NCBI GenBank assembly: GCA_002306345.1
Contig: DBRQ01000009.1
Location: 1 to 55,870, forward strand
Length of the DNA: 55,870 nt
Direction: 5' to 3'
Source: Candidatus Pacebacteria bacterium UBA1364
GTDB lineage: Bacteria > Patescibacteriota > Microgenomatia > UBA1400 > PJMF01
Position numbers and translations under genes: made by a program. The notes beneath the pieces were generated by a model. It searched no databases and was not told where the DNA came from. It saw only the letters and a program-made list of their open reading frames with translations. Below are positions 36,972 to 54,206 of this stretch, one piece after another; the stretch's first letter is position 1, and each line of letters opens with the position of its first letter.

Positions 36972-38283
36972 CAATTATATGTTTTGGGTTTTGTAATATA
37001 CTGATTACCCTATCTTTCAAAACAAACTTTGTTTTCAGACAAGATAATATTTGTTGTCGGTCACTACTTGAACCGGTTTTTAAAATATGTTCTAGATAAG
37101 TTTTAGCCATTTCTGTGTTTCTTGGTTTTACAGCAGATAATTCAAATTCTTCTAAGTTGCCTGACAGATATTCTTGATGAAGAACTTCAGACCTTAATTT
37201 ATGAAATCTTTCAATATCGTTTTTAATTTGTTGGGTAATTTTTGCTTCATCGATTTTAATTTTTGGTATAAGGTTGAGTAGTTGAGCAATTAAATCTTGC
37301 TCAGTAATATATGGTTCATCACAGTCGTAATCTACGGTTCTAGTGCAGTGATAGTAGATATAAGAAGCTTCTCCTCCATATTTTAATTTCTTGTGTTTTT
37401 CTTCTGGAATAACTTGAGCTCCACATCTGCCACATGTGCAAATTCCTCTAAAACCATAGCCATTTTTCTTCCAAGTTTTAGGAGTAGTAATTAGCTGTCT
37501 TTGCACTTTCATAAATAAATCATGAGAAATTAAAGGTTCATGAGTGCCTTTATATAAAACTCCGCTAAATTCAAATTCACCGTAATAGAAACTATTCTTT
37601 AAGGTGGCATAGATCTTGCTTAGAGCTAATTGTTTACCTGATCTTGTAGTAAAACCTATTCTATCTAGCCACCGCTTAACCATCCTTCCTGAGTAATGTT
37701 CATTACCAACTTTTTCAAAAATTTGAATAACAAAAGGAGCTCTTTCTTTATCAATAATAATTTCTCTAATGCGATCATTTTTCATAATATTAAGATATCC
37801 AAGTGGAGCATACCCTGGTCTGATCCCCATTTCGCATTTGGCTTTAAGCCCACGTTTAACATTGACTCCACGATTGTCATTTTCTAGTTTTGCCTGAGAG
37901 CAGAGAATCATTAATAAGAATTTCTCATTAGGACTATTGGTGAAGCTTTGTGAGTAGGTTTGAATTTTGAGCAGCTTTCCTTGGTCCATAAGGTCTACCA
38001 GTGAGCCAAGATCTCCAGCATTTCTACTTAATCTATCGGGAGCCCAAGTCAGGATAGCATTGTATTTTTCTTCTTTAATTTCCTTAAGGATTTCGACGAA
38101 TAGAGGGCGGGATCCTGAAGCTTTAGCAGAATGGCTTTCACGCTTTGTTTCAACAACGTCAATGCTCTCACGTTTAGCCAGAGTCAACATCTCTTTAATC
38201 TGAGAATCAATTGACATGGTTTGTCGCTCGTCCGATTCAGAAGATTTACGGGCATATAGGCAATATTTTAGTTTTTCTTGCAT
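36961..38283 (-). CDS. large serine recombinase (integrase)
   Basis: Resolvase catalytic domain YARKSSESDERQTMSIDSQ, ..DRLSR.., a recombinase domain, a zinc ribbon CTCGRCG...YYHCTR, and a C-terminal coiled coil. ATG at 38283 (the track TTG is at 38295). Confidence 0.85.
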   Translation of the reverse strand: MQEKLKYCLYARKSSESDERQTMSIDSQIKEMLTLAKRESIDVVETKRESHSAKASGSRPLFVEILKEIKEEKYNAILTWAPDRLSRNAGDLGSLVDLMDQGKLLKIQTYSQSFTNSPNEKFLLMILCSQAKLENDNRGVNVKRGLKAKCEMGIRPGYAPLGYLNIMKNDRIREIIIDKERAPFVIQIFEKVGNEHYSGRMVKRWLDRIGFTTRSGKQLALSKIYATLKNSFYYGEFEFSGVLYKGTHEPLISHDLFMKVQRQLITTPKTWKKNGYGFRGICTCGRCGAQVIPEEKHKKLKYGGEASYIYYHCTRTVDYDCDEPYITEQDLIAQLLNLIPKIKIDEAKITQQIKNDIERFHKLRSEVLHQEYLSGNLEEFELSAVKPRNTEMAKTYLEHILKTGSSSDRQQILSCLKTKFVLKDRVISILQNPKHIIAIN

Positions 38284-38357
38284 AGTTTCCTTCAAGTAAG
38301 TGAAGGTACCGCAAAGAATTTAGAAGTCTATTGCCAATTTATAATAACTTAAAGATG

Positions 38358-38394: not shown

Positions 38395-39150
38395 ATGAGC
38401 GATCAAAACGAAAACAATTTTTTTACACCAATACTAAGTGCAATATCGGGGATTGGTGCGATTGTTACTTCTGTTAGTCCAATCATATTTTCAAAAAACA
38501 ACATATTCCCCATTTTTATAGATCCTGAATTGACTACTTTTGCTTCAATAATAGCTGTCGTTATAGTGATTATTACTATATGGATGACGTCATCTATTAG
38601 TGCAATTATGTTGTTTAACAACAAGGGCAACCCAGCAAGCTTTAATTTGAAACTAATAATTATGTTTCTATTAAGTTTAGTGTTTTTTTATTTGATGAAT
38701 GTGTTGGTTAAGTTAAACGCAATAAGTATCCCTATAGCTTCTCTGCTTCAACTTTTGTCTTACCTGCTAGCTTTTCTATTTTTAGCTATGATAGTTGGGT
38801 TTTTATTGAGAGATTCCATAAATAATTCCAAGAGGGAACAGATAGAGGCTACTAAAATGGACAGAATAAAAGAATTATTAATCAAAACAGGCCTAATTAA
38901 GTTGAACTTTAAACTTCTTTCTATAGAAAACTATGTTCCTCAACAAGGAGAGTTTTCAAGATTTGGAAGTAAACAAATTAGAGCGTTAATAGATGGGAAA
39001 GAGTATTATTTAATAGCATCTAGCGATTTTTCTCTTTTGCAACACTCTGCAGAAATACCAAAACAAGCAACTATTGTAGCGGCAAATGTTGCGACAGCAA
39101 ACCCTTCTACAGTAACAAAAAAACCAAAAGTTCTTTTAAAAAAGTCCTAA
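38395..39150 (+). CDS. membrane protein, hypothetical
   Basis: 4-5 hydrophobic spans followed by a soluble C-terminal domain. No motif recognised. Confidence 0.5.
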   Translation: MSDQNENNFFTPILSAISGIGAIVTSVSPIIFSKNNIFPIFIDPELTTFASIIAVVIVIITIWMTSSISAIMLFNNKGNPASFNLKLIIMFLLSLVFFYLMNVLVKLNAISIPIASLLQLLSYLLAFLFLAMIVGFLLRDSINNSKREQIEATKMDRIKELLIKTGLIKLNFKLLSIENYVPQQGEFSRFGSKQIRALIDGKEYYLIASSDFSLLQHSAEIPKQATIVAANVATANPSTVTKKPKVLLKKS

Positions 39151-40568
39151 ATAAAATCAATAATTGGCAAAGTTTCTTTTAGCGATTCTCTATATTCAGC
39201 ACAAGCCATAGTAAAAGCATCTACCAAATCATTTGGACCATCGGGGCTGAATTCAATTAGTTGCAGAATTAGCTCTTCAGCTCCATTCCTTGGAAATAAA
39301 ACTTGAGCATTCTTGATTTGATTAGAGGCAGCCCATAATCTAGTGGTTTTATCCTGTCCTTTAGTGGTTTTACCTATTACTGGAAGTTTACGCGCATCTA
39401 GTTCATCAATTAATCCTGATTGTTGTGCAGCTTTTTCAACAATAATCTTTGTCGCACAGCCTTTATTAAAAGAGTGGTAAAGTGACTCAATGTAACCATT
39501 TAATTGAGGAGCATTTAATCTGCCATTAAATGGTTCTGGGTGGATGTACATTGTTTTTTGATCATTAAAATTATAAATTGAAGCACAAATGATGCCACTT
39601 TTATCAGATCTTTCTGTTGTAGTAAAAGCTGGGTCAACACTAATTAATTTACCAGCCAAATAACGATCATCTGGAAGCTGATCATAATATTGAATCCAAC
39701 TTGGCTTAATAATTTGTTCTTTGCTATTAATAGCTTTTAGTAAGTACTCTCTAGCAAAATCAATTTCAGTCATGGAATTTCTTAATTTATCGATTGCTTG
39801 TTGATTTGGGTATTTATTTTTCCACAAACATTGATCATCTTTGTCTATAAGCGGGTATTCTCTGTATATCCCAGTTCTTTTTCCATTTAAAATTGATTGC
39901 TTTAATCTCATCATTGCCGAATCTCTGTGAACTAGATTGCCAATAAAAATATATGAGGTGTCAGGAGAACCCACTGGAATTAACTCACCATTAACGAACT
40001 CCCACAATTTCTCTCTTTGCTCTAATATTCTGGCTGATTGCACATCTTCAATATCGTCAGCAATAACAAGATCTGGTCGGTAAGCTCCATGCCTAATTCC
40101 ACGAATACTTTCACTTACTGAGACAGCGGAAATTCTAGCTTTTTGGTTTCTTAAAACTAAACTACTTGAATTCCACTCACTAGTTTCTGCTGTAATAAAT
40201 GGACCAAAATCATTTATTAATAATTCGTTACTTTCTAGTTCTTGCCTAATGTTATACAAGGTTTGGTTGGCTCGGCTCTGGTTTTGACTCACAACCACAA
40301 TAAACTTCTTTTTTTCTGTACAAATAACTTGCCATAAAGGCAACATCAAGGTACATAACGTTGATTTAGCACTACCCCTAAAAGCCACAATACAAGAGAA
40401 ACTTGGCTCGTCACTCGTAATCAACCTAATAATTTCTCGATGAAAAGCTGGCGTTTTGTATTGTAGGAAGTGACTAAAATATATAGCTATAAAATACTCA
40501 AAGCTTTGTTTTGCTAGTTCTTTTCTAGTTGTACGATTGTTTAATAACTCAGCCATTTGTTTTTGCAT
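39147..40568 (-). CDS. phage terminase large-subunit-like protein
   Basis: Walker A-like AFRGSAKST, Walker B LVIADDIED, and RNaseH-like nuclease acidic residues (ISVDPAF..SDKSGI, DLVDAFTMA). Confidence 0.7.
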   Translation of the reverse strand: MQKQMAELLNNRTTRKELAKQSFEYFIAIYFSHFLQYKTPAFHREIIRLITSDEPSFSCIVAFRGSAKSTLCTLMLPLWQVICTEKKKFIVVVSQNQSRANQTLYNIRQELESNELLINDFGPFITAETSEWNSSSLVLRNQKARISAVSVSESIRGIRHGAYRPDLVIADDIEDVQSARILEQREKLWEFVNGELIPVGSPDTSYIFIGNLVHRDSAMMRLKQSILNGKRTGIYREYPLIDKDDQCLWKNKYPNQQAIDKLRNSMTEIDFAREYLLKAINSKEQIIKPSWIQYYDQLPDDRYLAGKLISVDPAFTTTERSDKSGIICASIYNFNDQKTMYIHPEPFNGRLNAPQLNGYIESLYHSFNKGCATKIIVEKAAQQSGLIDELDARKLPVIGKTTKGQDKTTRLWAASNQIKNAQVLFPRNGAEELILQLIEFSPDGPNDLVDAFTMACAEYRESLKETLPIIDFI

Positions 40569-40950
40569 CTTTTTCTCCTTGTAATAGCTCTAATGCCAAC
40601 ATAATTTTTTCTTGTTGCTCCTTAGATAAATTTTCTTGATTGTTAACACCACTTAATTCCACTTTGGTTCTATAATCTGGATGGTTGTGTTTAAGCCAGA
40701 AGCTAATTGCCTGAAAGCGTTTGTCTTTAATTGAAGAGATAAGTTGTGATTCGGCTAGATCATTCACTAATGATTTGCCATCCTGCAGAGAATCCCGAGC
40801 TTCTCTAGCGAACTCTTCGTTTTGACACCATCGATAGAAGGTGGCTCTACTGACGCCTGCTTTTTCACAAGCAATTTGGACAATTGGCGTTTTACGCAAT
40901 TGCTCTATTAGACGTTGCTGGTCGGATTTGATTCTTTCTTCGATACTCAT
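40549..40950 (-). CDS. small HTH protein (terminase small-subunit-like position)
   Basis: HTH CEKAGVSRATFYRWCQ. It overlaps both neighbours (4 nt and 20 nt), so the three genes are co-transcribed. Confidence 0.5.
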   Translation of the reverse strand: MSIEERIKSDQQRLIEQLRKTPIVQIACEKAGVSRATFYRWCQNEEFAREARDSLQDGKSLVNDLAESQLISSIKDKRFQAISFWLKHNHPDYRTKVELSGVNNQENLSKEQQEKIMLALELLQGEKDAKTNG

Positions 40951-42278
40951 AAGATTCTTTCTGCCTTTAGACCAGTGAGTTTCTCCCAGCGTTTGCGAAT
41001 AACCTCAGCGTAAGTAGGGCATTTTTCCATTACAAAACAGCGACGCTTTAATTTAGCTGCCGCAATTAAGGTTGAACCACTGCCACCGAAGGGTTCAAAG
41101 AGTAGATCTCCACGCTTAGTTAGAACTTTAATGTAGGGAATAAGAATCTCAATCGGTTTGGTGCCAAAGACTACTCCCTGACCAGAACTCTTTTCATCGG
41201 AAGCATTGAACTCAATAAAGTCAGTGGGCTGAATCTTTTTGCCTTTATCGTAGCCTTCCCATTGTGGTTTACCTGAGATGGCATAGAGGGCGGTTTCATA
41301 TTCTTCTTGCAAGCCATCAACTTCCTCACTTAAGTTGTAGGGCACATCAGCATCTTGAGAAGCTCCAACCATAGCAATGTCATGTTTGCTAAAGAATTTG
41401 TACTTAGCACTAAAACCTTGGTGGCGATTGGGTATGTGCCAAACAAGCATGTTTTTAACTTTCCAATGTTTTTCCATCTCCGCCCAGATGGTGCGTAGGT
41501 TTTTCCAGTTTTCGTAGACAATGATAGAGAAGTGTTCAGCTTGAACTTTAGCAACGTTATCCATCCACAGTTCTGTAAAATTGTCTGGTAGAGAGTCGGT
41601 CATTAAATACTTGCGATCTCTTTTATATCCAAACCCCTCGGTTGGTTTACCATGTTTTTGTTTACCGTGAAGATAGTCCAAAATATATGGAGGATCGGTC
41701 AAACATAGGTCTACTTTTTCTTCAGCAATTAGCTTTAAAACGTCTGGCTCATTTGTAGAATCGCCAATCATCAGTTTATTTTCGCCCAACTGATAAACTT
41801 CGCCAGTTTTCATGGTAATCTCAGAAATTTGTAGCTTAGCTAATTCTTTTTTAAGATCGAATTCTTCAGGAGTCTCTAGATCAAAGTCGAAGATACTATC
41901 AATTTCTTCACTGGTAAACCCAACGTCGCTGAGCATTTCTTCAGAGAATTCTTTAAGTAAATCGTAATCCCACTCTCCAGTAGCTCGGTTGAGTCTAAGG
42001 TTTAAGTCTTTCTCTTTTTCAATGTCAGGAATATTAAGAAAGATAACTGGCACCTCAGCAAAGCCAAGCTCTTTGGCAGCGGCTAATCTCATGTGTCCAC
42101 CAATGAGGGTATTTTTTCTCTCAGGAGCACAGTTGGCGATTAGTGGATCTACCAAACCATGTCTAGTAATGCTTTCTTTAAGCCTTTCTAGAGCGTCTTT
42201 ATCCCATTTTCTTGGGTTATAGGTGGCTGAGTTAAGCTCCTCAATTTTGATTTGTACTACATCAAGCTTGTTGTTCAT
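40947..42278 (-). CDS. ParB-like nuclease domain fused to an N6/N4 DNA methyltransferase
   Basis: ParB-N: NPRKW, GLVDPLI, GGHMRLAAAKELG. Methyltransferase: DPPY (LTDPPYILDY) followed by FEPFGGSGSTLIAA. Confidence 0.85.
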   Translation of the reverse strand: MNNKLDVVQIKIEELNSATYNPRKWDKDALERLKESITRHGLVDPLIANCAPERKNTLIGGHMRLAAAKELGFAEVPVIFLNIPDIEKEKDLNLRLNRATGEWDYDLLKEFSEEMLSDVGFTSEEIDSIFDFDLETPEEFDLKKELAKLQISEITMKTGEVYQLGENKLMIGDSTNEPDVLKLIAEEKVDLCLTDPPYILDYLHGKQKHGKPTEGFGYKRDRKYLMTDSLPDNFTELWMDNVAKVQAEHFSIIVYENWKNLRTIWAEMEKHWKVKNMLVWHIPNRHQGFSAKYKFFSKHDIAMVGASQDADVPYNLSEEVDGLQEEYETALYAISGKPQWEGYDKGKKIQPTDFIEFNASDEKSSGQGVVFGTKPIEILIPYIKVLTKRGDLLFEPFGGSGSTLIAAAKLKRRCFVMEKCPTYAEVIRKRWEKLTGLKAERIL

Positions 42279-42391
42279 AAGCTTTCTTTCTTCAAAAAGG
42301 TATTCAAATATTATTATTTAGATCAAAAAGTACCCTTTAATAATATTTTACTGATTTTGCATAAATTTTTTCTAAATTGCTCATCACAAAC

Positions 42392-42421
42392 AAAAACCCC
42401 GCCTGTTTAAGCGGGGTTTTA
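42392..42421. terminator. GC-rich hairpin flanked by A/T runs (bidirectional terminator)
   Basis: aaaaccccgc-ctgtttaa-gcggggtttt, lying between 42444..42935(-) and the ParB-methylase operon. Confidence 0.65.
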
Positions 42422-42443
42422 GAAGTTTTTACTTTAAGAATCT

Positions 42444-42935
42444 TTATTCAACGATCTGGCAGTCTTTGATCATAATGATGCCTAGACTTTGTTCGTTAAC
42501 TTTACCCTTTACCATAACAATCTGATCATTGGCTACATTAAGCAGGTCTTCTTTATTTTTGAAGAAGCATTGTATGCTTGTGCCTGTATAAAGGTTACCG
42601 ACACTGCTTGGTCTTACCATAATAAATGGGTTACCAGTAATATCTTCAGAGATGTTGGCAATTTTACCTTTTAACTGAACACCTTTGCCTTTATATTGGT
42701 TTTCTGCCGATAGCTGATTGGTGTCAAAAGCTTCTATAAACTTGGTAATATCTACTTCTTGGTAAGTTAGTTCTGTCTCAGCTGTTTTTTGCTCAGCATT
42801 AGAGCTATTTGAAGTAGAACTTTTGTCTGAAGAGCCGTTTGATCCAGCAATGGCAATGACTACAATAATAGCCAGTATTACTGTTAATACTTTATGTCTG
42901 GCAAACCAGTTCTTCTTTTTTTCTGGTTCTGGCAT
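42444..42935 (-). CDS. membrane-anchored OB-fold (tRNA_anti-like) protein
   Basis: N-terminal TM helix, a Ser-rich linker, then NQLSAENQYKGKGVQLKGKIANI, which resembles the tRNA_anti-like OB family. Confidence 0.5.
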   Translation of the reverse strand: MPEPEKKKNWFARHKVLTVILAIIVVIAIAGSNGSSDKSSTSNSSNAEQKTAETELTYQEVDITKFIEAFDTNQLSAENQYKGKGVQLKGKIANISEDITGNPFIMVRPSSVGNLYTGTSIQCFFKNKEDLLNVANDQIVMVKGKVNEQSLGIIMIKDCQIVE

Positions 42936-43042
42936 GGTTTTCCTTTCTTTTTTTAATTACTGAACCAATATTACCGCAACTACTCTAATAATGCTACAAG
43001 GAGAAGCTGTAAATCAGAGCTGTTTGCAAAGACAATGGATAC

Positions 43043-43270
43043 GTGGGAACAGCACTCAATACTACTAGCTTACATAGAGAATTTGGTAATAAGATCCAAC
43101 AGCTTCGTAAACAAAGAGGTTTGTCACAAGAAGATTTGGCATTTAAGGTTGGCGTAGATAGAAGCTATATGGGTTTTATTGAGCGTGGCGAAAAGAATGC
43201 AACCTTAGACAAAATTATCAAAATAGCTAAAGCTTTTAATATTAAAGTTAGAGATTTGTTTGATTTTTGA
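43043..43270 (+). CDS. XRE-family HTH transcriptional regulator
   Basis: LRKQRGLSQEDLAFKVGVDRSYMGFIERGEKNATLDKIIKIAKAF. GTG start. Confidence 0.8.
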   Translation: MGTALNTTSLHREFGNKIQQLRKQRGLSQEDLAFKVGVDRSYMGFIERGEKNATLDKIIKIAKAFNIKVRDLFDF

Positions 43271-43334
43271 GTTTTCCTATTTTGTTTACTTATACAAGAT
43301 TTTTCAACCTTTTTTGTTTGTGGACTGTAAGGTG

Positions 43335-43343
43335 TGCTATTAT
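43335..43343 (+). promoter_or_regulatory. extended -10 box TGcTATTAT, 11 nt before the ATG at 43355
   Basis: Read directly from the sequence. Argues for ATG 43355 rather than GTG 43334 as the helicase start. Confidence 0.4.
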
Positions 43344-43354
43344 CTATACAAATA

Positions 43355-45037
43355 ATGGAAGAAGAATCAAGATTAAAAGAAGATAGAAAAAAAGATTCGG
43401 ACAAGATTATAAAGTCGAAATATCCTAAAAGGGTTGTTGTTGCTGGTCCAGGAACAGGTAAAAGTTTTCTTTTTAAGAAAATAATTGAAGAAGAGGTTAA
43501 GAATGGTAGTACCAACTTCTTAGTTATTACTTTTATGGGAAAACTTTGTGATGAACTAGCTGATGAATTAGCCGGTTTATCTAAGGTTTTTACTTTACAT
43601 GGTTTTGCTAGAGAATTTTTATTTAGTCAGTTAAGTAACAAAGATGAATGGGTTTATCAAACAAATATAAAGGATATTATTTTTGAAGATTTAAAAATTA
43701 ATAGTATAGATAATTGCAAAATTGAAGATGATTCTTATCATGAAAGAACTAAGTATTATAAAGCAGTTGGACACGATGATGTTATTTTTTATGCAAATAA
43801 AATTTTAAAGAAAAAAGATAAAGTACCAAAATACGATTTAATACTAATTGATGAGTTTCAGGACTTTAATGAGTCTGAAGCTCAATTAATAGATCTGCTC
43901 GCAGAAAAAAATAGAATAATAATAGTTGGAGATGATGACCAAGCTTTATATGACTTTAAGGGTTCGTTTTCAAAATTTATTTGTGACAAGTATGATGAAA
44001 AAAATCAAGATTTTGAAAGCCATTGTTTAAAATATTGCTCTAGATGTACTGAAGTAATAATAAGCGCTTTTCACAGAATTGTTGACTTTTATAAGGATAA
44101 AGGAAGGCTTAAAGATAGAATTAGCAATAAAGAGTATGTTTGTTTTTATCCTGAAAAAAATAATGACAACAAAAATAATCAAAAAATTATTTTAATAGAA
44201 AATATTCCTATAGGTAGTATTCACAAAAAAATTAAAAGTGAATTAGAAACTTTACTGAAAAATCAAAAAATAAAATCAGTTTTGATTTTAGGTGAAGCTA
44301 CCAGTCTTTCTTCATCATTAAAAGAAATAGCACAAAGGTTAATAGAGCTTGGTTTTAGAAATGTTGAATCATCTTTAAACAATGATGTCTTTGGTTTTGA
44401 AAAGGATATTTTTGATGCTTATAAAATTTTTAACAAAAATAATAATTTAGCTTGGAGAATTATACTTAACAGTCTAAAAGATAGCATTGGAGAATCATAT
44501 TCAGAAATAATCAAAAAAAGTTTCGTAAAAGATTTTAAATTTGTTGATGAGTTACCGAAAGATGTTATAAAAAAACATAATAAAAATGCAAAAACCTTCA
44601 GCAATATAGTCTCAAAGACAAAATGTGGGAGAGATTTAATAGCGGATTCATCTATATCAGATTTAAGTAAGGATTTGGTAGATATTAAGAAAGAAGAAAG
44701 AGAATTAGTTATAGATCAAATTATTAAAGAGACCAAACATTTAAATAGGCCTTTGGCCAATCTAAGTATATCAGTATGTAGTATTTTAAAATCTAAGGGT
44801 TTGAGTGCAGATGTTGTTTTTTTGGTTGGCTTTGATAATGGTAAGTTGCCAAAGGATACTGATGCTAAAGATGGAGAAATTTATCAGATGCTAGTTGCTC
44901 TCACAAGAGCCAGAAAAAGAATATATCTTCTCAATACTATCGGTAGTTCTGTTTCAGAATTCGCAAAAGCAATAGGAGATGACTTAGTCGAAAAAAATAA
45001 GTTTGAAACAAAAAAAAGAAGTGAAGGACAATCCTAA
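43355..45037 (+). CDS. UvrD-like SF1 helicase/ATPase (compact, divergent)
   Basis: VVVAGPGTGKS (Walker A), LILIDEFQDFNE (motif II), IIIVGDDDQALYDFKG (motif III), C-terminal VVFLVGFDNGKLP and LVALTRARKRIYLL (motif VI region). Confidence 0.8.
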   Translation: MEEESRLKEDRKKDSDKIIKSKYPKRVVVAGPGTGKSFLFKKIIEEEVKNGSTNFLVITFMGKLCDELADELAGLSKVFTLHGFAREFLFSQLSNKDEWVYQTNIKDIIFEDLKINSIDNCKIEDDSYHERTKYYKAVGHDDVIFYANKILKKKDKVPKYDLILIDEFQDFNESEAQLIDLLAEKNRIIIVGDDDQALYDFKGSFSKFICDKYDEKNQDFESHCLKYCSRCTEVIISAFHRIVDFYKDKGRLKDRISNKEYVCFYPEKNNDNKNNQKIILIENIPIGSIHKKIKSELETLLKNQKIKSVLILGEATSLSSSLKEIAQRLIELGFRNVESSLNNDVFGFEKDIFDAYKIFNKNNNLAWRIILNSLKDSIGESYSEIIKKSFVKDFKFVDELPKDVIKKHNKNAKTFSNIVSKTKCGRDLIADSSISDLSKDLVDIKKEERELVIDQIIKETKHLNRPLANLSISVCSILKSKGLSADVVFLVGFDNGKLPKDTDAKDGEIYQMLVALTRARKRIYLLNTIGSSVSEFAKAIGDDLVEKNKFETKKRSEGQS

Positions 45038-46631
45038 AAAACAATATTACGAAGATTTATATGATCTTTTTACAATAAAAGAATGTCTTAGAGGTGTTGA
45101 GCTTTGGAAAAAGATTTATCAAAAAAGTAAGACCGCTAAAGAAATAAAAAAAGTTCCCAAGGAAGAATCTGCTCGTGCCTGTAATTTCATGTACAACATT
45201 CATATGCTGGTTACTAAAACTCAGCGATATAAAGATAGAGCGGCAACCATTCAGGGGTGGATTGATAGAGACAAAGCTAGGCAAGATAAGCTAGACAATA
45301 CTCCTGCTCCGAAAAATATAATTTGTCCTAATTGTCAGACTAAAATGGTTACGGATGATTTTAAGATTCTTGAAGATTGGGATAAAGGTGATGAGGTTAG
45401 AGTTTTATTCACATTTAATTGTCCAAAATGTAAAAAACGAGAAGGTATATATGACAATGGTGATAAGCATATTTCTAAACCAGCTCTCTGTCCAAAATGT
45501 CATAAAGAAATTAAAACCACTTTAAAACTAAAAAATAGAGTTTTAACTACCACGACTGAATGTTCTTCTTGTGGTTATAAAAATATTGATATTGATGATT
45601 GGGATAAAGAAGATGTTTGTAGAAAGGCTGAGAAAAAGGCAGATCAAGAATTACTAGATAAATATCGTAGGGAGTTTTGTTTATCTGATAAAGAGGGTCA
45701 AGAAAATATCGAAATGATGGAAGCTATGGATGTAGCTCATGAAGTTAGGTTAGAAACAATGGCTGAATATGACAATCCTGTTTATGAGAGAAAAATGCAA
45801 CTTAAAAAAACTTCAGTGACAGATTTAGAAAAGATTCTTAGTAAGAAAATGGAAGAAACTAATTTTTCTAAACTTAGTTTTGCTAGTCCTGAAATAGATC
45901 GATATGTAATTGTTCCTTTCACTGTACAAAACACCGATGTAAAAAGAAAAGATAGAGAGAGCGAATATCAGCTTAAAAAATTAATCAACCAAAATATCAA
46001 GGATACTAATTGGCGATTGGAGTCTAATGAGATTAGCTACCGATTAGGTTATTTAAGTGGCAGATTAAAGGGCTATGAGAGTGAAGAAGATTTACTTAAA
46101 TTAGCCGGTAAAGAAGAAACTAAAAAGCCTAAATCAAAAATAGATCCAGAAAAAAGACGTAAATATGAAAGCCATAGTTATGTCCAATTAGCACGTTTAT
46201 TTGGTGAGATAGATGCAAAAAGCAATATTAGAAAAAGAAGACTAAAAAATGAGCCAGAAGGTTTCTTTTTAGATGATGAAGAAGGTGGCGGTTATACTTG
46301 CGGTATTTGTGGTGGTTCTCATGAGGGTAAAGATATTTGGTGGCAAGAAGATGGTCTAAGATGTAGAGACTGCTGGAATAACATTAAAAAAGGTGTTATA
46401 CCAATGTTTAAGCTAGATGCTGAAGATTGGGAAAAAGAATTTTTAACTAGGTCAGATATTACCTATAAATATAAAATCCATCCTGCAACAATAGGTAAAA
46501 TGAGAAGGCATGGAGAGTTGGTTGGGAGAGATTTAAGAAATAAAGATGAATGGATTTATTGTGAGGTGTTTTTGGTGAAAGAGAATAAAAAATTTTTTAT
46601 AAAAGATAAAAATAAATATTTAGTAACTTAA
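45003..46631 (+). CDS. multi-zinc-ribbon protein with C-terminal excisionase-type HTH-like segment
   Basis: Three Cx2C...Cx2C pairs: CPNC/CPKC, CPKC/CSSC, CGIC/CRDC. C-terminal LTRSDITYKYKIHPATIGKMRRHGELVG. TTG or GTG start inside a 35-nt overlap with the helicase gene. Confidence 0.6.
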   Translation: MKQKKEVKDNPKKQYYEDLYDLFTIKECLRGVELWKKIYQKSKTAKEIKKVPKEESARACNFMYNIHMLVTKTQRYKDRAATIQGWIDRDKARQDKLDNTPAPKNIICPNCQTKMVTDDFKILEDWDKGDEVRVLFTFNCPKCKKREGIYDNGDKHISKPALCPKCHKEIKTTLKLKNRVLTTTTECSSCGYKNIDIDDWDKEDVCRKAEKKADQELLDKYRREFCLSDKEGQENIEMMEAMDVAHEVRLETMAEYDNPVYERKMQLKKTSVTDLEKILSKKMEETNFSKLSFASPEIDRYVIVPFTVQNTDVKRKDRESEYQLKKLINQNIKDTNWRLESNEISYRLGYLSGRLKGYESEEDLLKLAGKEETKKPKSKIDPEKRRKYESHSYVQLARLFGEIDAKSNIRKRRLKNEPEGFFLDDEEGGGYTCGICGGSHEGKDIWWQEDGLRCRDCWNNIKKGVIPMFKLDAEDWEKEFLTRSDITYKYKIHPATIGKMRRHGELVGRDLRNKDEWIYCEVFLVKENKKFFIKDKNKYLVT

Positions 46632-46636
46632 ATTTT

Positions 46637-47191
46637 ATGTCCAATATACAAATAACTAGAGAAATGGAACATTTAATGGACTTGGTAAGTAGCGGTAATT
46701 ACTCAGTGATTGCAATTGATGGAAATGATGGTGTTGGTAAATCAACGTTAGCTGATGCATTATCAAAAAAATTTGGATATAAGCATATCAATTTAGATAA
46801 CTTTCTAAGTAAAAAGAAGGGTGGTTATTTAAAATATTTAAACTTTAAAAACATTGAAGCTGAAGTCAGAAAACGTTCGAATAAGAAAATAGTTATTGAG
46901 GGGGTTTTGATGAAAAAGGTATTAGAAGAAATTAATGTTGATCCAGATATGTTCATTTATATATCTGACAACGTTTGGATATATCAATGGTCTGAGGAGT
47001 ATGACGGTGAGTATAGCAAGATGACATTTGAAGAAATTATTAAAGACGTTGAAGATAAGACAAATAGAATTTCTAGAATCGTTGATTCCAACCCAAAAAT
47101 TTACAAGCTAAATGGGTTACAGTTTGAATTATACGAATACGCTTTTAAATGTAAGCCATGGGAGAGTGCTGATTTAGTATATGTCAGGTAA
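46637..47191 (+). CDS. P-loop nucleoside/nucleotide-kinase-like protein
   Basis: VIAIDGNDGVGKSTLADAL (Walker A) and KKIVIEGVL (Walker B-like, as in uridine-kinase / dNK-type folds). Confidence 0.6.
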   Translation: MSNIQITREMEHLMDLVSSGNYSVIAIDGNDGVGKSTLADALSKKFGYKHINLDNFLSKKKGGYLKYLNFKNIEAEVRKRSNKKIVIEGVLMKKVLEEINVDPDMFIYISDNVWIYQWSEEYDGEYSKMTFEEIIKDVEDKTNRISRIVDSNPKIYKLNGLQFELYEYAFKCKPWESADLVYVR

Positions 47192-48200
47192 AAAACGAAC
47201 AAACAACACTGAATTAAAAACCAAGGTAGGTGAGGCTAAAAATGCTGAGGTAGCTGGTAGCTATTTTAGTGCAGCAATTTTATATAAAGAAGCACTTGTG
47301 CTTGCAAAAAAACTTGGTAATTCTGAATTGATAAAACTTTGTAAGTCAAAATCTGTAGAAATGAATAAAAAATCTATCGATTCTGGAAATGGTTTCAAAG
47401 AATATAAGTTTTCATATGAGTTCTCAGAAAAGCAAAAAGAAGATCTAAAAAAATTCATGATAGGCTTTCTTAAAGAAAAAGACAAAACAGTTGTTTTAAA
47501 AAGGATTGGATTGTCTTCATTTTTTATCCCAAAAGTAGATCAGATAGAATTAATTGCGAAAAACAACATGCCTATTTCTCATATATTCGCAACACTTAAT
47601 TCTATTTCTAATCAAGGTCATAATTTAAGAGGTGGATCTCTTGGCGGGTATTCATGGTTTATGTCTATGTATGATATTAATCAAGAAAACATAATGTCCA
47701 TGCTAAGTAATTTGATTTATTCTTTAATTTATAAAAATCAATATGGAGATAATATGAAAATATCTGAAATAAATGACTACTTTTCGCAGTCCCAACTATT
47801 TAATGATAGCCAATTGAAGATAGTCAAAGTTGGATTAAAAAAATATTATGAAGAGGACTACGTATCAGCTCTTCATATATTAGTTCCTCAGTTTGAATCA
47901 TTTCTGTTAAGTGTAGTCGAAAAACTTGGAATTAATATTGTTGCTTTGGACACGTCAATGGATATGGCAACTAGAACGAAGGTTTTATCAGAAAGAGATT
48001 TCGATTCTCAAGATTTTATTAATATATTTGGAAAAGATTTTTGCAAACAAATTAAATTTATATTGTTTGAGCCAATGGGATATAAATTGCGACACAAAAT
48101 AGCACACGGTGAAATATCGGCAAATGAGTGTAACTTTCAGAATGCAACACTTATTTTATATCTATATCTGGTAGTTTTAGCTAGAGTTGTGAAGAAGTAA
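47181..48200 (+). CDS. HEPN-motif protein (DUF4209-like by recollection)
   Basis: C-terminal YKLRHKIAHGE, giving an Rx4H motif at nt 48090..48107, preceded by LVPQFESFLLSVVEKLG. Overlaps the upstream gene by 11 nt. Confidence 0.6.
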   Translation: MSGKKRTNNTELKTKVGEAKNAEVAGSYFSAAILYKEALVLAKKLGNSELIKLCKSKSVEMNKKSIDSGNGFKEYKFSYEFSEKQKEDLKKFMIGFLKEKDKTVVLKRIGLSSFFIPKVDQIELIAKNNMPISHIFATLNSISNQGHNLRGGSLGGYSWFMSMYDINQENIMSMLSNLIYSLIYKNQYGDNMKISEINDYFSQSQLFNDSQLKIVKVGLKKYYEEDYVSALHILVPQFESFLLSVVEKLGINIVALDTSMDMATRTKVLSERDFDSQDFINIFGKDFCKQIKFILFEPMGYKLRHKIAHGEISANECNFQNATLILYLYLVVLARVVKK

Positions 48201-49217
48201 CTAAATCCATTTAAATAAATTGTATATATTGGTAAAATCTGGTTTTTTAATTGGTTCTAGAGCTTTTAAATCGACTAATGATTCAACCACATAGTTATAA
48301 AATACAATATCAGCAACTATTGACTGAGTTATCCAATTGCTGTAGATAAGTTCTGTAAATTTTATATTATCTCCATGAACAATTGAGTTCCTAAGTTTGT
48401 AAAATTTCCAGCACCACCATGCTGGATTGCTGAGTGTTTTATTATCCTTTTTCTTACCATATTTTCTTGTTCTTTTTTTAAACCTTGCTTCTGTTAGTTT
48501 TTTTTCAACAGACTCAGCAAAATAAATTGATTTATCTGAGATATTTGGTATATCTAAAATAATTTCAAACGCTGAAGCAAGCATTATTATTTTAAAAAAT
48601 GGGGAAACTGAATCATTTTCTATGTGTGCTAAACGAAACCATTCTAAGGATCTAAATAATCTATTTTTAAATCTTTTATTTTTTTGTGAATTAATTAATT
48701 TGTTTATTGCCAGTAGAACATCAATATTGATATTTCTAAAAAATCCACCAGTTGACCATGGTTTTTGAAAATTAACTTCCTTTAAGGTCCATCCTCCGCT
48801 TATAGCGCTTCCTGACCTTATTGCAATTCCATCACTTCCTGCTACAAAATTTTGATACTTCATATCAAAAATGTCAGCACTGGGAGGACCAACGCTGTAA
48901 TTATTCATATTTAGGGCAATTCTTGACTGTTCAGAAATGCATAGGAAACAAAGAATGTTTCTAGCAGAATTAACTTCTTGGTATTGTTCATTGGTTAGTT
49001 GCTTAAAGTTATTTTTATCTTTGAAAGAAACAATTGTAAGCTCTTTAACAGGTTGCAAATGCTCATCTACGTAACAATTTACGTATTCATCAAGATAATT
49101 TTTTATTTCTTGGTCGTGAACCAAATCAGATTTATATTTCCAAAATATTACATTACCTATTTGTAGGTTTTTTATAGAAATCCAAGGAAGCAAAGATACC
49201 TGATCAACTATGTCCAT
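48201..49217 (-). CDS. HEPN-motif protein (Abi/ApeA-like C-terminal domain)
   Basis: FYKLRNSIVHGDN, giving an Rx4H motif at nt 48375..48392 in an all-helical C-terminal region. Its stop codon abuts the stop of 47181..48200. Confidence 0.6.
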   Translation of the reverse strand: MDIVDQVSLLPWISIKNLQIGNVIFWKYKSDLVHDQEIKNYLDEYVNCYVDEHLQPVKELTIVSFKDKNNFKQLTNEQYQEVNSARNILCFLCISEQSRIALNMNNYSVGPPSADIFDMKYQNFVAGSDGIAIRSGSAISGGWTLKEVNFQKPWSTGGFFRNINIDVLLAINKLINSQKNKRFKNRLFRSLEWFRLAHIENDSVSPFFKIIMLASAFEIILDIPNISDKSIYFAESVEKKLTEARFKKRTRKYGKKKDNKTLSNPAWWCWKFYKLRNSIVHGDNIKFTELIYSNWITQSIVADIVFYNYVVESLVDLKALEPIKKPDFTNIYNLFKWI

Positions 49218-49328: not shown

Positions 49329-50294
49329 TTGATCTCGACTCGAATGTGCGAAATAAATATTATGAATAAAAGAAAATTTACTACTGAATTCGGAATAAAT
49401 TTTGTTTGTACGCACCTGACTTTATTACAACAGGACCACCTTGCAACTCAAATTATCCCAAATTTAAAAAATAGCTCAATATACTTCATTTGTTCTAGAC
49501 CTAAGATAACAATAGACATGAAAAACATTAAACAAACTGAAAATTCTTTATCAGGTAATTTTATTGTGCATAGAGGTGACAACCAATACAGTTATCCTTT
49601 TTCAATGAGCTTTCCAGAAAATTTTAAGGTTAAACTAATATGTGATTACCCATATACAGAATACAAGCTTTTCGTAAATGATCATATTTTTTCTGAAGGG
49701 CTGGTTTCGAATCAAGCAACTTTAATTAATGACGATATTCAAAATGAAGTTCCACTAGAAGTGATTTATATTGGGCAATCATTTCCCCACAATGGACGGA
49801 CAATAAAAGATAGATTGCTTAATCACTCGACTTTACAAAAAATTTATGCAGAAAATAATAAAGAAACTCCAGATAATGATATTTATATTATAATTGCCAC
49901 TTTTGAAGATGTAATTCTTGGAGCAATTGACGGAAAGTCTAAAGTAGAAACAACCGAGAAACAAAATGATGATCATACCATTATGGTGTTGGAGAAAGCT
50001 TCAGAAGAAGAACAACAACGAACCAATATTATTGAAGCAGCATTAATAAAATATTTTAGACCAAAATATAATCTTAAATTCATAGACAAGTTTCCGGACA
50101 AGAAACATAATTCATATAAAAGCTATTATGAATTAGATATTAATAGAGTGCTTTTCGAAATAAATACTGAAGTTATAAAAGCTAAAATAAAGAGTGCCAT
50201 TGTTGCTCCAGAATGGACACACTTTGCCGATTTTCCTCTTGAGAATAAGTCCAAAAAAAACGATTTACTTCATTTTATGGGTTTAAGCGAATAA
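49329..50294 (+). CDS. GIY-YIG-like nuclease domain protein
   Basis: EVIYIGQS (nt 49761..), RTIKDRLLNH, NIIEAALIKYFRPKYN (Glu/Asn block). The N-terminal ~130 aa are unassigned. The start is uncertain (TTG 49329, ATG 49344 or ATG 49362). Confidence 0.5.
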   Translation: MISTRMCEINIMNKRKFTTEFGINFVCTHLTLLQQDHLATQIIPNLKNSSIYFICSRPKITIDMKNIKQTENSLSGNFIVHRGDNQYSYPFSMSFPENFKVKLICDYPYTEYKLFVNDHIFSEGLVSNQATLINDDIQNEVPLEVIYIGQSFPHNGRTIKDRLLNHSTLQKIYAENNKETPDNDIYIIIATFEDVILGAIDGKSKVETTEKQNDDHTIMVLEKASEEEQQRTNIIEAALIKYFRPKYNLKFIDKFPDKKHNSYKSYYELDINRVLFEINTEVIKAKIKSAIVAPEWTHFADFPLENKSKKNDLLHFMGLSE

Positions 50295-50343: not shown

Positions 50344-50461
50344 TTAATTGTTACGTTGTATATTTATCTGTCTCGCTGATGCAATATGGATTTTAAGATT
50401 TGAGTAAATAGTAAAACAGAAAAGCAGGATTATTTTGTTTCTAAGTGATAAACTTTACATA

Positions 50462-52858
50462 ATGCGAAACTTTTTTGTTCATTCTAATGAGTTCAAAGAA
50501 CAAAACAAACGTCCAATGGTTGCAGCGATGCTAGCTGTGTTTTTTGGTCCGCTTGGTTTTCACAGGTTTTATCTGAAACGTTATACCTCTGGCTTAATTT
50601 TTTTTATTTCTACTGTTCTGTCATCCGGTGCACTTATGGTAATAACAATTCCAATCTCATGGATTGAAGCAATCTATTATGCCTATATTCAACAAAAAAG
50701 GGTGAATAAACAAAAAGCTCAAAGAATAGATAGTAATAATACAAATGCGACAAATTTTGCTAATCTTTTTTCTAATTATGGAGCAGGAGACTCTACGGAT
50801 GAGAATGGTATTCCAGACATTAAACATTATCAAATACCTGCCATTTCCCCTGCTTTAGAGAAACAACTAAGTTCATTGCAAGGAATTGTTGCTTCATTGG
50901 AGGATCAATCAAAAAATTTATTGCAATCTAATTATGATTTGCAGAAAGCATATAAGGTTGATTACCACAAAGAGCTTAATGAGAATCAGTTTTTGGCAGC
51001 AACTAATATTGATGGGCCAATGCTCGTCATTGCTGGTGCCGGTAGTGGCAAAACTAGAACCTTAACTTATAGAGTAAGTTACCTTTTAGAGAATGGTGTC
51101 AAACCTCATAGAATTTTGCTTTTAACTTTTACTCGTAAGGCTGCTAATGAAATGTTAGATCGTGTGACTCAATTAACCAATAATCAATCAGCCAAAATGG
51201 TAGACGGTGGAACATTTCATGCCTTCGCTAATAAAGTTTTGCGTAAATACGCCAGACTTATTGATATCGAGCCAAACTTTACTATCATAGATAGCAGTGA
51301 CTCTGCAGACGCAATTAATTTGGTTCGTCACGCATTAAACATTAAAAAGAAAAAAGATGAGCTCTTTCCTAAAAAAACACAGCTGCAAAACATTATTTCT
51401 GGTTCTAGAAACAAATCACTTTCTATTGAGGAATATGTAAAAAAAGAATATCCGCGATTTACTCCGCACATAGATGTTATAGAGCAGATTGCTCGGGCAT
51501 ATCACGAATACAAAAGGACTACTAATATTTTTGATTACGATGATCTTTTGGAAGTATTTCTTGAGAAAATGAAGTCTAATGCAGACTTTTGCAAACAGGT
51601 GCAGAGTAGTTATGATTATGTCCTAATTGATGAGTATCAGGACACTAATATAACGCAAGCAGAGTTAATTGGAGTTTTAGCAAAAAATCATAATAATATT
51701 TTTGTGGTGGGTGATGATGCACAAAGTATCTATGCTTTTAGGGGAGCAAATTTTGTCAATATCCTCAAATTCCATGAGCAATTTCCAGGGGCAAAAGTCG
51801 TTAAACTCAACGAAAATTATAGAAGCAATCAAGAAATTCTCAATTTTTCGAATGCAGTAATAAATGAGGCAACATTAGGCTATAAGAAATCTCTATATTC
51901 ACAGAAAAATGCTGGATATAAACCGCAAGTGTATCGATTTGCCGATGAGTTAAGAGAAGCATCTTGGATAGCAGATGAAATTGAAAAAGAACACGATTCT
52001 GGAAATAAACTCAAAAATATTGCTGTATTATTTAGAGCGTTTTACCATAGCAACTTTCTTCAAGCTGAATTAATGAAACGTAATATTCCTTTTGTGACAG
52101 TGGGTGGAATAAAATTTGTTGAGCGAAAACACGTCAAAGACGTCATGGCATATTTACGTGTTACTGCAAATTTTAAAGATTCATTGGCTTGGAATCGCAT
52201 TTTAACAATGATTCCTAATATTGGAGATAAAACGGCAGCAGATATTTCACTTCAAATTAGGAAACAAGAATTTAATGCAACTGGTTTTACAAAAAAGAAT
52301 TTTTATACGGACTTAGTTAACTTATTATCGTTATTGCAGTCGATTAAAGAGGCACCAGAGATTAAAGAAAAAATTTCCAAAATTATTCAATATTATCTCC
52401 CATATCTAGAAGCAACAGAGGAAAATGCTGCCATACGCAAGTTTGATCTTGATGCTTTGCAAGCATTATCAGAAAAATACAAAAATGCTCAGGACTTTAT
52501 TAATGATTTCTCACTTGATCCACCTAACCAGGCTTTTCAAAACAAAGAAGTTGATAAAGTTGAGAAAATAGACGACTATATTACACTCTCAACAATACAT
52601 TCTGCTAAAGGCTTAGAATGGCATACTGTGTTTGTGATAGAAGCCATTGATGGCTTATTGCCTAGTCATCATAGTCTTAATACTTTAAACGAGATAGACG
52701 AAGAGAGAAGACTATTTTATGTTGCTATTACTCGTGCTAAAGAACGACTAGCTATCACACTTCCTCATTATAGTATGGGATATAGTGCGTTTTTTAGTTT
52801 GCCATCAAGATTTTTAGCTGGACAATCTAGAGAATATTTTGATTTCTCTGATCGGTAA
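50462..52858 (+). CDS. TM2-domain membrane anchor fused to a UvrD/PcrA-type helicase
   Basis: N-terminal MVAAMLAVFFGPLGFHRFYLKRYTSGLIFF plus a second TM helix (TM2-like). Then AGAGSGKTRTL, VLIDEYQDTN, VVGDDAQSIYAFRGA, TIHSAKGLEWHTVFV, RRLFYVAITRAKERL. ATG 50462 (the track TTG is at 50435). Confidence 0.8.
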   Translation: MRNFFVHSNEFKEQNKRPMVAAMLAVFFGPLGFHRFYLKRYTSGLIFFISTVLSSGALMVITIPISWIEAIYYAYIQQKRVNKQKAQRIDSNNTNATNFANLFSNYGAGDSTDENGIPDIKHYQIPAISPALEKQLSSLQGIVASLEDQSKNLLQSNYDLQKAYKVDYHKELNENQFLAATNIDGPMLVIAGAGSGKTRTLTYRVSYLLENGVKPHRILLLTFTRKAANEMLDRVTQLTNNQSAKMVDGGTFHAFANKVLRKYARLIDIEPNFTIIDSSDSADAINLVRHALNIKKKKDELFPKKTQLQNIISGSRNKSLSIEEYVKKEYPRFTPHIDVIEQIARAYHEYKRTTNIFDYDDLLEVFLEKMKSNADFCKQVQSSYDYVLIDEYQDTNITQAELIGVLAKNHNNIFVVGDDAQSIYAFRGANFVNILKFHEQFPGAKVVKLNENYRSNQEILNFSNAVINEATLGYKKSLYSQKNAGYKPQVYRFADELREASWIADEIEKEHDSGNKLKNIAVLFRAFYHSNFLQAELMKRNIPFVTVGGIKFVERKHVKDVMAYLRVTANFKDSLAWNRILTMIPNIGDKTAADISLQIRKQEFNATGFTKKNFYTDLVNLLSLLQSIKEAPEIKEKISKIIQYYLPYLEATEENAAIRKFDLDALQALSEKYKNAQDFINDFSLDPPNQAFQNKEVDKVEKIDDYITLSTIHSAKGLEWHTVFVIEAIDGLLPSHHSLNTLNEIDEERRLFYVAITRAKERLAITLPHYSMGYSAFFSLPSRFLAGQSREYFDFSDR

Positions 52859-54055: not shown

Positions 54056-54143
54056 AAATGGAACAAACATGATTATATACTGTCTCATTTGTCTCATTTT
54101 CAGTATAATCACCTCTAGCAGATGATGGTATTATAACGACGTA

Positions 54144-54168
54144 GGGTTCCAGACCCACCTGTTCCGCA
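54144..54168 (+). repeat. degenerate copy of tRNA-Ser T-arm and acceptor 3' end (candidate attR)
   Basis: gggttccagacccacctgttccgca versus tRNA 35874..35898 gggttcgagtcccgccccttccgca: 20 of 25 identical, ungapped, same orientation. Confidence 0.5.
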
Positions 54169-54206
54169 TTGAAAAAAAGATTGAATATTCAATCTTTTTT
54201 TCAATG
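54167..54206. terminator. 40-nt perfect palindrome (bidirectional terminator-like)
   Basis: cattgaaaaaaagattgaat | attcaatctttttttcaatg. The halves are exact reverse complements and contain A7/T7 runs. Confidence 0.55.

Follow-up and report, generated by a model that had tools for sequence, protein, structure and literature searches.

The block of genes at positions 43043–48200 of contig DBRQ01000009.1 from Candidatus Pacebacteria bacterium UBA1364 (the whole stretch analyzed, 55,870 nt, is referred to below as the window) lies in an integrative element of ~18 kb and belongs to its accessory arm, a rightward one with co-directional genes. In a preliminary description of this DNA, the block was taken for a candidate new defence system, in which an XRE-type regulator gene precedes an operon of four genes encoding a UvrD-like helicase, a 542-aa protein with zinc ribbons (termed ZnR below), a small P-loop kinase-like protein, and a 339-aa protein with a HEPN signature (the DUF4209 protein). 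The evidence considered here makes a different reading the probable one: the “four-gene operon” is composed of a single gene belonging to the element, that of ZnR, and three cargo genes acquired separately; the arm is a mosaic, the modules of which would act singly.

The exchange of cargo was seen in the comparison of the window with the locus L162, which harbors the closest relative of the element, and across 66 loci carrying ZnR. The amino acid identity between the window and L162 amounts to 91% for a DNA methyltransferase, 87% for the XRE regulator, and 75% for the terminase subunit TerL. At the DNA level, the similarity revealed by blastn extends over 39148–42430 (the genes for TerL, TerS, and the methyltransferase) and over 42848–43268, ending at the stop codon of the XRE gene. 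It resumes at 45226–46613, where it covers ZnR only, and then at 54067–54200, leaving ZnR as the sole L162-like segment between the XRE stop codon and 54.07 kb. The place that the helicase occupies in the window, between XRE and ZnR, is taken in L162 by genes for an AAA_21 ATPase, a GIY-YIG nuclease, and a FlmR_OhkR_N protein; downstream of ZnR, L162 has genes for HNH_2 and DUF8370/8371 proteins instead of the kinase-like gene, the DUF4209 gene, and the rest of the arm. Hence, two cargo slots flank ZnR: slot 1 lies between the stop codon of XRE and the start of ZnR, and slot 2 begins at the ZnR stop and extends to ~54.07 kb. The “four-gene operon” comprises slot 1, ZnR, and the two genes with which slot 2 opens. 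A single close relative, with backbone proteins 75–91% identical, was enough to split the presumed operon into an element gene and swapped cargo.

The genes themselves were confirmed. The open reading frames (ORFs) proposed previously were found at the same places on the forward strand (XRE regulator, 43043–43270; helicase ORF, 43334–45037; ZnR, 45003–46631; kinase-like protein, 46637–47191; 339-aa protein, 47181–48200), and the junctions between the last four (an overlap of 35 nt, a gap of 5 nt, and an overlap of 11 nt) can be read directly in the sequence. All five genes are real, each having either a family of homologues or a profile match. The cut of the block at 48200 had left out a convergent gene for a 338-aa protein, which abuts it at 48201–49217.

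The dense packing of the genes loses its significance when other ZnR loci are considered. For this survey, 67 genome loci were fetched, and their ORFs were called and clustered; after later fetches and clustering, 66 ZnR loci were available in all. In 25 of the 28 ZnR loci featuring an upstream gene on the same strand, the gene lies within 38 nt of ZnR or overlaps it (by up to 59 nt), whichever gene it is; downstream of ZnR, the picture is similar. Since tight junctions are generic around ZnR, translational coupling provides no evidence of partnership.

Co-occurrence speaks the same language. Among the 65 ZnR loci other than that of the window, the helicase adjoins ZnR in none (0 of 65), and no close relative of the helicase is present in any of them; the kinase occurs in one (L036, where it lies on the opposite side of ZnR), and DUF4209 occurs in six, downstream of ZnR and always without the kinase. 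The set of four genes, or any three of the four, was found in none of these loci, nor in 80 other DUF4209 loci, nor at seven other places harboring the helicase. The proposal that the four genes constitute one system of a sensor, a modulator, and an effector has not survived this survey; it was the preliminary description itself that had named a lack of co-occurrence outside this genome as speaking against the proposal. Overall, tight packing on the same strand, even when the domains combine plausibly, does not suffice for calling a new defence system.

Slot 1 is occupied by a stand-alone, compact UvrD-like ATPase/helicase of superfamily 1 (SF1) at 43355–45037 on the forward strand (560 aa from ATG); the ATG at 43355 is a likelier start than the GTG at 43334, with which the ORF begins. 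The earlier assignment to the UvrD-like SF1 ATPases was correct. The Pfam domains UvrD-helicase (PF00580, 80.5 bits), AAA_19 (PF13245, 69.8 bits), and UvrD_C (PF13361, 45.8 bits), all above their cut-offs, place the protein among the SF1 UvrD/Rep/PcrA-like enzymes, and its translation contains the motifs GPGTGKS and DEFQD, quoted previously, together with GDDDQ, KSKGLSAD, and VALTRAR, so that motifs I, II, III, V, and VI are all represented. It also carries VGDDDQALYDFKG / GDDDQALYDFKG, a further motif quoted in the preliminary description.

The helicase belongs to a compact family of ~545 aa with more than 1500 homologues. Close relatives were examined at seven other places representing five distinct arrangements, and none of these places has ZnR, the kinase, or DUF4209. 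The relative in L075 is located alone between uvrB and thrS, those in L073 and L074 belong to other defence islands, and that in L163/L164 is situated beyond TerL, in the other arm of an element of the window type. The closest relative (54% identity) is part of a compact operon of overlapping genes in L165/L166 (4380–7680), encoding an XRE regulator, an N6/N4 methyltransferase, an HNH nuclease, and the helicase, which may represent a helicase-assisted restriction–modification-like module. Elsewhere, members of this family are partnered by HNH, by a 205-aa protein, or by none.

Scans with PADLOC, Pfam, NCBIfam, and PHROG models detected no complete known system, in line with the earlier statement that the block does not match any system that could be named; the absence of a GajA or HamA partner, noted at the same time, holds in the PADLOC scan as well. 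Gabija comprises GajA, an OLD/TOPRIM ATPase-nuclease, and GajB, a UvrD-like helicase, whereas Hachiman consists of HamA (DUF1837) adjoining HamB, a helicase of superfamily 2. The window helicase resembles GajB in its SF1 motifs and in partial matches to the GajB hidden Markov models of PADLOC (best E 4e-27), and in L071 the corresponding XRE–ZnR slot is filled with GajA-like and UvrD-like genes. However, the window helicase represents a compact ~545-aa family of its own, occurring solo or with other partners, and the scan of ten proteins encoded at 40.9–52.9 kb yielded matches to GajB models only and none to GajA. Gabija was rejected given the lack of GajA and the position of the helicase, flanked by XRE upstream and ZnR downstream. 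Hachiman was rejected as well: neither the HamA nor the HamB model was matched, and the helicase is of the SF1 UvrD type.

ZnR (45003–46631, forward strand) is conserved and separates the two cargo slots. The protein it encodes combines three zinc ribbons with a ferredoxin-like domain and a winged helix-turn-helix (HTH)-like tail. The three Cx2C...Cx2C ribbons reported earlier were located at C108/C111–C140/C143, C163/C166–C187/C190, and C433/C436–C454/C457, and all 12 cysteines are invariant in 26 homologues; the HTH-like tail noted at the same time appears as a winged-HTH-like one in the AlphaFold2 model. This model (pLDDT 84) displays, in order, an N-terminal helical hairpin, a beta-rich double zinc-ribbon domain, long helices, the ferredoxin-like domain, the third ribbon, and the tail. 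Foldseek retrieved no significant match to it in PDB or BFVD, the non-significant matches being confined to sub-domains (S24e/S6-like ferredoxin fold, zinc ribbons, HTH). No family was assigned by the PADLOC, Pfam, NCBIfam, or PHROG scans either, and comparison of the ZnR profile with PDB sequences returned zinc-ribbon noise only.

At ~50% identity, 455 full-length homologues of ZnR were found, and those with a named source come from lineages of Patescibacteria, i.e., the candidate phyla radiation (CPR); when 1.84 billion representatives were searched with a profile, 992 clusters at 50% identity were obtained. Most of the best 150 clusters represent a short form of ~360 aa, composed of the helical hairpin, the double zinc ribbon, and the ferredoxin-like domain. 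The 540-aa form, with the extra zinc ribbon and the winged HTH, accounts for only ~13 of these best 150 clusters.

Across the 66 ZnR loci, the ParB-type methyltransferase is present in 21 and, with one or two exceptions, is encoded upstream of ZnR on the opposite strand. The same position is typical of TerS (16 loci) and TerL (9 loci); XRE is found in 26 loci and the serine integrase in 10. In contrast, ZnR has different immediate neighbours almost everywhere. They include SMODS proteins of the cyclic-oligonucleotide-based anti-phage signaling system (CBASS) and LexA-like regulators, type I/ISP restriction–modification proteins, DUF4238 and DUF3800 proteins, a DUF2779/Cas4-like nuclease, Gabija, and Shedu. 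As a measure of co-evolution between ZnR and the backbone, the rank correlations of pairwise identities were weak and not discriminating (0.28 for ZnR and the methyltransferase vs. 0.44 for TerS and the methyltransferase).

Two side observations concern the surroundings of ZnR. Its commonest neighbour outside the backbone is a protein of ~490 aa with DUF2779 and a Cas4-like nuclease domain, encoded in 15 of the 66 loci (e.g., L004, 8388–9920, and L016, 6644–8062), nearly always no more than three genes upstream and in either orientation. On the 1.13-Mb Microgenomates contig JBAZXP010000001.1, two ZnR genes (L034 and L035) lie ~0.55 Mb apart in different neighbourhoods, which is consistent with multiple copies of the element, or multiple islands, per genome.

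The main rival explanation assigns a central role to ZnR as a sensor or regulator shared by whatever cargo adjoins it; the helicase, the kinase, and the HEPN protein would then be tied to each other via ZnR without forming a fixed system. Regulators of the BrxR/WYL or CapH/CapP type, which adjoin diverse defence systems, offer an analogy. Such a role would be in keeping with the conservation of ZnR between two variable slots, with its nearly invariable co-directionality and tight packing with changing neighbours, and with the richness of its immediate surroundings in defence genes and control proteins. The combination of zinc ribbons with a winged-HTH-like tail, the divergence of ZnR, which is faster than that of the backbone, and the fusion of one homologue to a P-loop kinase-like domain fit in as well. 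Still, the same backbone with DUF4209 cargo exists without ZnR (L072, L078, and L079), the helicase and DUF4209 families mostly occur without ZnR, and small P-loop proteins show no enrichment in the vicinity of ZnR (2 of 244 near it vs. 9 of 779 far from it); DNA binding or sensing by ZnR is itself putative. The explanation is therefore regarded as unlikely.

A broader view of ZnR can be put forward tentatively, as one that is possible rather than probable: ZnR may found an uncharacterised, largely CPR-restricted family, the ~360-aa core of which is more diverse than the 540-aa form, and serve as a hub between two defence hotspots of a capsid-less, satellite-like element, being either a new sensor of infection or a regulator for exchangeable immunity genes beside it, or else a stand-alone immunity protein. 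As a working view, we infer that ZnR is a nucleic-acid-binding protein of the element involved in its regulation or maintenance, the roles of a sensor, a regulator, or a stand-alone immunity protein being the alternative. ZnR is the most interesting residue of the finding.

Slot 2 opens with the gene of a small P-loop protein resembling nucleoside monophosphate kinases (46637–47191, forward strand, 184 aa). Its description as a Walker-A kinase-like protein stands as far as the motif is concerned (GNDGVGKST), but matches to particular families are found only at or below the curated cut-offs: SKI scored 22.1 against a cut-off of 22.1, AAA_17 scored 24.6 against 27, and the NCBIfam model PRK03839, “putative kinase” (E 5e-7), scored 29.9 against 152. 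The top PDB match, 4cvn, a putative adenylate kinase (E 2e-5), is limited to the P-loop region. The family is rare. Three members were found, namely that of the window, one upstream of ZnR in L036, and one upstream of DUF4209 in L082; a search of IMG/VR with the window kinase found nothing.

The next gene (47181–48200, forward strand) encodes the 339-aa DUF4209/ERMARD (C6orf70)-type HEPN protein. The HEPN signature pointed out previously was upheld: PF13910 is matched with 24.8 bits (cut-off 22.3) at residues 274–330, the RHKIAH motif corresponds to R304–H309 (nt 48090–48107), and neither R304 nor H309 varies among 25 sequences (RHKIAHG). Many homologues carry a precomputed PF13910 match. The AlphaFold2 model is all-alpha (pLDDT 84), with helices at 209–335 around the motif. 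DUF4209 corresponds to the C6orf70/ERMARD HEPN family, which has been classed as catalytically active and reported in operons related to restriction–modification (Anantharaman et al. 2013, PMC3710099).

Proteins of the window type form a separate DUF4209 family of ~335 aa with 193 matches. In the 81 loci sampled, the neighbours of DUF4209 are mostly unique on both sides; often, the gene is directly divergent from that of the ParB-methyltransferase, without ZnR. Only in the window and in L082 (1 of the 80 other DUF4209 loci) is the DUF4209 gene preceded by that of the kinase. The stop codon of the DUF4209 gene is abutted by the convergent gene of the 338-aa protein mentioned above (48201–49217, reverse strand), an Apea-like HEPN protein with the Rx4H motif YKLRNSIVHGD, which is conserved as YKLRNSVVHGD in six homologues. 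This protein matches Pfam HEPN_Apea with 19.2 bits, under the cut-off of 24.4, and has no PADLOC match. An alignment of the DUF4209 profile with the ~340-aa family by hhalign covers the motif region only (probability 10%).

The convergent ~340-aa gene adjoins DUF4209 in five loci (the window, L071, L072, L080, and L107) and occurs without it in L001. Contiguous DNA similarity of 66–69% identity was found between 47202–49204 and L072 and between 47259–49198 and L071. As judged from the sequence, the real recurrent module is a two-HEPN convergent cassette of ~2 kb at 47181–49217, not the block proposed initially. The DNA shared with L071 and L072 begins at the start codon of DUF4209, which excludes the kinase from the cassette.

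As a side observation, proteins of ~270–290 aa with FlmR_OhkR_N (PF12640, formerly UPF0489) are encoded directly upstream of ZnR or DUF4209 in related elements, with overlaps of 4 nt (L070, 8198–9004; L072, 8198–9004; L071, 5210–6082; L162, 8180–9004). They represent another frequent cargo gene or partner.

Both HEPN proteins can be compared with single-gene systems, known or candidate. The C-terminal half of PDC-S39, a candidate listed by PADLOC, is matched by the DUF4209 protein (E 5e-14), but the match covers only positions 257–575 of 595 in the profile (or 468–591 of 615). The possibility that a split PDC-S39 is present, the N-terminal half being supplied by the kinase or the FlmR_OhkR_N neighbours, was rejected, since neither matches that half. 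A literature search found no validation of PDC-S39. The 338-aa protein resembles ApeA in its layout, with a domain at the N terminus and an RNxxxH HEPN motif at the C terminus, and in the weak HEPN_Apea match; it differs in the size of the N-terminal domain (~200 instead of ~300 aa) and in a score below the Pfam cut-off. ApeA has reportedly been validated as a single-gene HEPN defence.

One could also imagine that the kinase and the DUF4209 protein, with or without the Apea-like protein, constitute a toxin/modulator module, to which the helicase and ZnR are unrelated. The 11-nt overlap of the two genes, the recurrence of the pair in L082, and the recurrence of DUF4209 with the ~340-aa gene as a DNA cassette in five loci would agree with this. 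Nevertheless, the L071/L072 cassette starts at the DUF4209 start codon and lacks the kinase, the kinase of L036 has no DUF4209, and the ~340-aa gene of L001 has none either. DUF4209 has many alternative neighbours on both sides, and PADLOC lists the related PDC-S39 as a single-gene candidate. Such a module is quite improbable.

The element to which the arm belongs spans roughly 36.0–54.2 kb of the window, both ends being approximate, and its relatives are found mostly in the genomes of Patescibacteria/CPR. Its backbone consists of the serine integrase, TerL, TerS, the ParB-methyltransferase, the Sie-like lipoprotein with XRE, and, usually, ZnR. The large serine recombinase (36961–38295, reverse strand) has the Pfam domains Resolvase, Recombinase, and Zn_ribbon_recom and matches the integrase family phrog_95 (E 2e-56); its 5′ end is 91% identical to L162 at the DNA level. 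It is followed by TerL (39147–40568, reverse strand; phrog_38, E 2.8e-75), kept together with the methyltransferase and TerS in 9–13 related loci, and by the TerS-like HTH protein (40549–40950, reverse strand), matching PHROG TerS families (E 4e-8 to 1e-6) and, slightly under the cut-off, Pfam HTH_Tnp_1_2; TerS is carried by 16–18 related loci. The ParB_N-N6/N4 methyltransferase (40947–42278, reverse strand), identified with Pfam and phrog_498 (E 1e-77), is always divergent from the cargo arm. Next to it resides a tRNA_anti-like lipoprotein (42444–42935, reverse strand; PF12869, 55.5 bits) resembling superinfection exclusion (Sie) proteins (phrog_8545 “superinfection exclusion Sie-like”, E 3.5e-11), and the divergent pair it forms with XRE recurs in L001, L071, and L072.

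On the left, the low-GC element is adjoined by tRNA-Ser(CGA) (35815–35897, forward strand, ARAGORN), which would mark its rough start, as suggested by the drop of the GC content to 0.264 at 36–37 kb. At or near the right end lies the conserved segment 54067–54206, of which 54067–54200 is 74% identical to L162 13886–14020 by blastn. A perfect 40-nt palindrome, CATTGAAAAAAAGATTGAAT / ATTCAATCTTTTTTTCAATG, occupies 54167–54206 in this 134-nt L162-conserved segment, past cargo that is unrelated in the two elements. The segment could serve as an operator, represent an end of the element or an attachment (att)-type site, or belong to a host flank common to both loci. A search for att repeats gave no convincing direct repeats on either side of the element; a 23-nt match at 36380 was rejected, as it falls in a poly-Phe coding stretch. 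Nor were iterons or origin-like repeats found near ZnR.

The XRE/HTH_3 regulator (Pfam HTH_3, 62 bits; PADLOC Control_protein, E 6e-20) belongs to the switch region of the element and not specifically to the helicase, given that its L162 counterpart precedes different genes and that the DNA similarity ends at the XRE stop. It is comparable with C-protein-, BrxR-, and CapH-type regulators in matching the PADLOC Control_protein and capH models and in preceding different cargo in different elements. It differs from them in being paired with the Sie-like lipoprotein in the element switch region, with no cognate restriction enzyme after it. The extended −10 element TGCTATTAT proposed as an independent promoter at 43335–43343 is present, and the promoter is plausible, but the motif lies inside the GTG-initiated ORF, and such patterns are no commoner in the window than chance predicts (24 vs. 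22.35 expected), nor are promoter-like sites in 42.3–50.5 kb (43 vs. 43.3). The block is AT-rich, as described, with a GC content of 0.27–0.32 vs. ~0.36 in the flanking genome; by gene, the cargo is at 0.27–0.32 and the backbone at 0.34–0.40. It is not singularly so, however, considering that the region of 36–37 kb is equally low. That the block lies in an integrated element, as stated previously, is supported by the identified integrase and backbone, and the region is a defence-rich part of this element.

The remaining genes of slot 2 are located downstream of the two-HEPN cassette. A 321-aa cargo protein (49329–50294, forward strand) matches only phrog_15714 (E 5e-29), of unknown function; it has no Pfam or PADLOC match and no homologue in any fetched locus. 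The following gene (50435–52858, forward strand) encodes an 807-aa UvrD/PcrA-like helicase of full length with the Pfam domains TM2, UvrD-helicase, and UvrD_C; it scores 454 bits with NCBIfam pcrA, under the equivalog cut-off, and has no DNA similarity to L162. The fusion of an N-terminal TM2 membrane domain to a PcrA-like helicase makes it an unusual membrane-anchored helicase.

PHROG and Pfam scans recognised no capsid, portal, or tail gene among the element ORFs, and no primase or Rep was recognised in the element. The element has an integrase, a repressor-type regulator (XRE), and packaging genes (TerS, TerL), with no structural-protein match, i.e., the gene content expected of a phage satellite. 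The same truncated backbone without capsid genes recurs across many CPR-type genomes and species, and a recurring capsid-less backbone with its own terminase is suggestive of a satellite-like element. True phage genomes with ZnR or the methyltransferase were considered and rejected: the IMG/VR contigs concerned resemble the same islands, and no structural genes were recognised in them. The conserved backbone with fixed positions swapping unrelated immunity genes is reminiscent of hotspots in integrative elements and phage satellites, such as hotspots of the P4/P2 type and the cargo of phage-inducible chromosomal islands (PICI); defence hotspots are said to exist on such elements and satellites. 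The differences include the hosts, which are CPR/Patescibacteria-type genomes, the combination of TerL, TerS, and the ParB-methyltransferase with a serine rather than tyrosine integrase and no capsid genes, and the position of the hotspots around an uncharacterised 540-aa zinc-ribbon protein.

That the arm is DNA of a decaying prophage or element, with genes serving element replication or nucleotide metabolism or being inert, is very improbable. The presence of TerL and TerS without capsid genes and of a second UvrD/PcrA-like gene would be compatible with such decay, as would the putative nature of the defence role of the arm, but all genes are intact with their catalytic motifs conserved, the truncated backbone recurs in many species, with two ZnR copies on one contig, and the cargo of the relatives consists of recognised systems (CBASS, Gabija, Shedu, and restriction–modification). 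The least probable explanation is the initial one, an XRE-controlled system with the helicase and ZnR as the sensor, the kinase as the modulator, and the HEPN protein as the effector: in spite of the co-directional genes with overlapping or 5-nt junctions, the defence-type domains, and the lack of a complete known system according to the PADLOC models, it is largely refuted by the absence of the combination from the 65 ZnR, 80 DUF4209, and seven helicase loci elsewhere, by L162, which keeps XRE and ZnR and replaces the rest, by the generic nature of the packing around ZnR, and by the HEPN gene traveling in a cassette with a different, convergent partner.

Several points weigh against the interpretation of the arm as an element gene with separately acquired cargo. 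A defence function of the cargo is suggested by its context only. Among the three kinases, which are the whole sample of this family, two adjoin ZnR and two adjoin DUF4209, and a 697-aa ZnR homologue (P0370) has a C-terminal fusion with an AAA_18/AAA_33 P-loop kinase-like domain; these adjacencies and the fusion leave room for a link between ZnR and the kinase, although the domain in P0370 has no homology to the window kinase beyond the P-loop/Walker A. The sampling of the helicase is limited to the seven places and five arrangements described above. For the HEPN fold of the DUF4209 protein, Foldseek found no match in PDB at E ≤ 0.001, and the sequence profile matched nothing in PDB. Some elements sharing this backbone lack ZnR (L072, L078, L079, and L088). 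ZnR is also more diverged from L162 than the backbone is (55% vs. 75–91% amino acid identity), and may itself be semi-accessory.

In the mosaic reading, rightward co-transcription of the arm from the XRE region is probable, as suggested by the packing of the genes with overlaps. XRE would act as a repressor-type switch of the element, and each cargo module would act singly as anti-phage or anti-competitor immunity. The helicase may operate as a GajB-like nucleic-acid-dependent NTPase, whereas the HEPN proteins are predicted to be RNase-type effectors of abortive infection using the invariant Rx4H dyad.

To our knowledge, mobile elements and immunity in CPR/Patescibacteria are poorly charted. 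What remains of interest is the ZnR family and the element family. Three units emerge from the presumed system: a solo family of compact UvrD-like helicases, a two-HEPN convergent cassette, and a ZnR family with no known relative. Together with them, the analysis outlines a family of integrative elements of CPR/Patescibacteria with interchangeable cargo that includes CBASS, Gabija, Shedu, restriction–modification, and HEPN modules.

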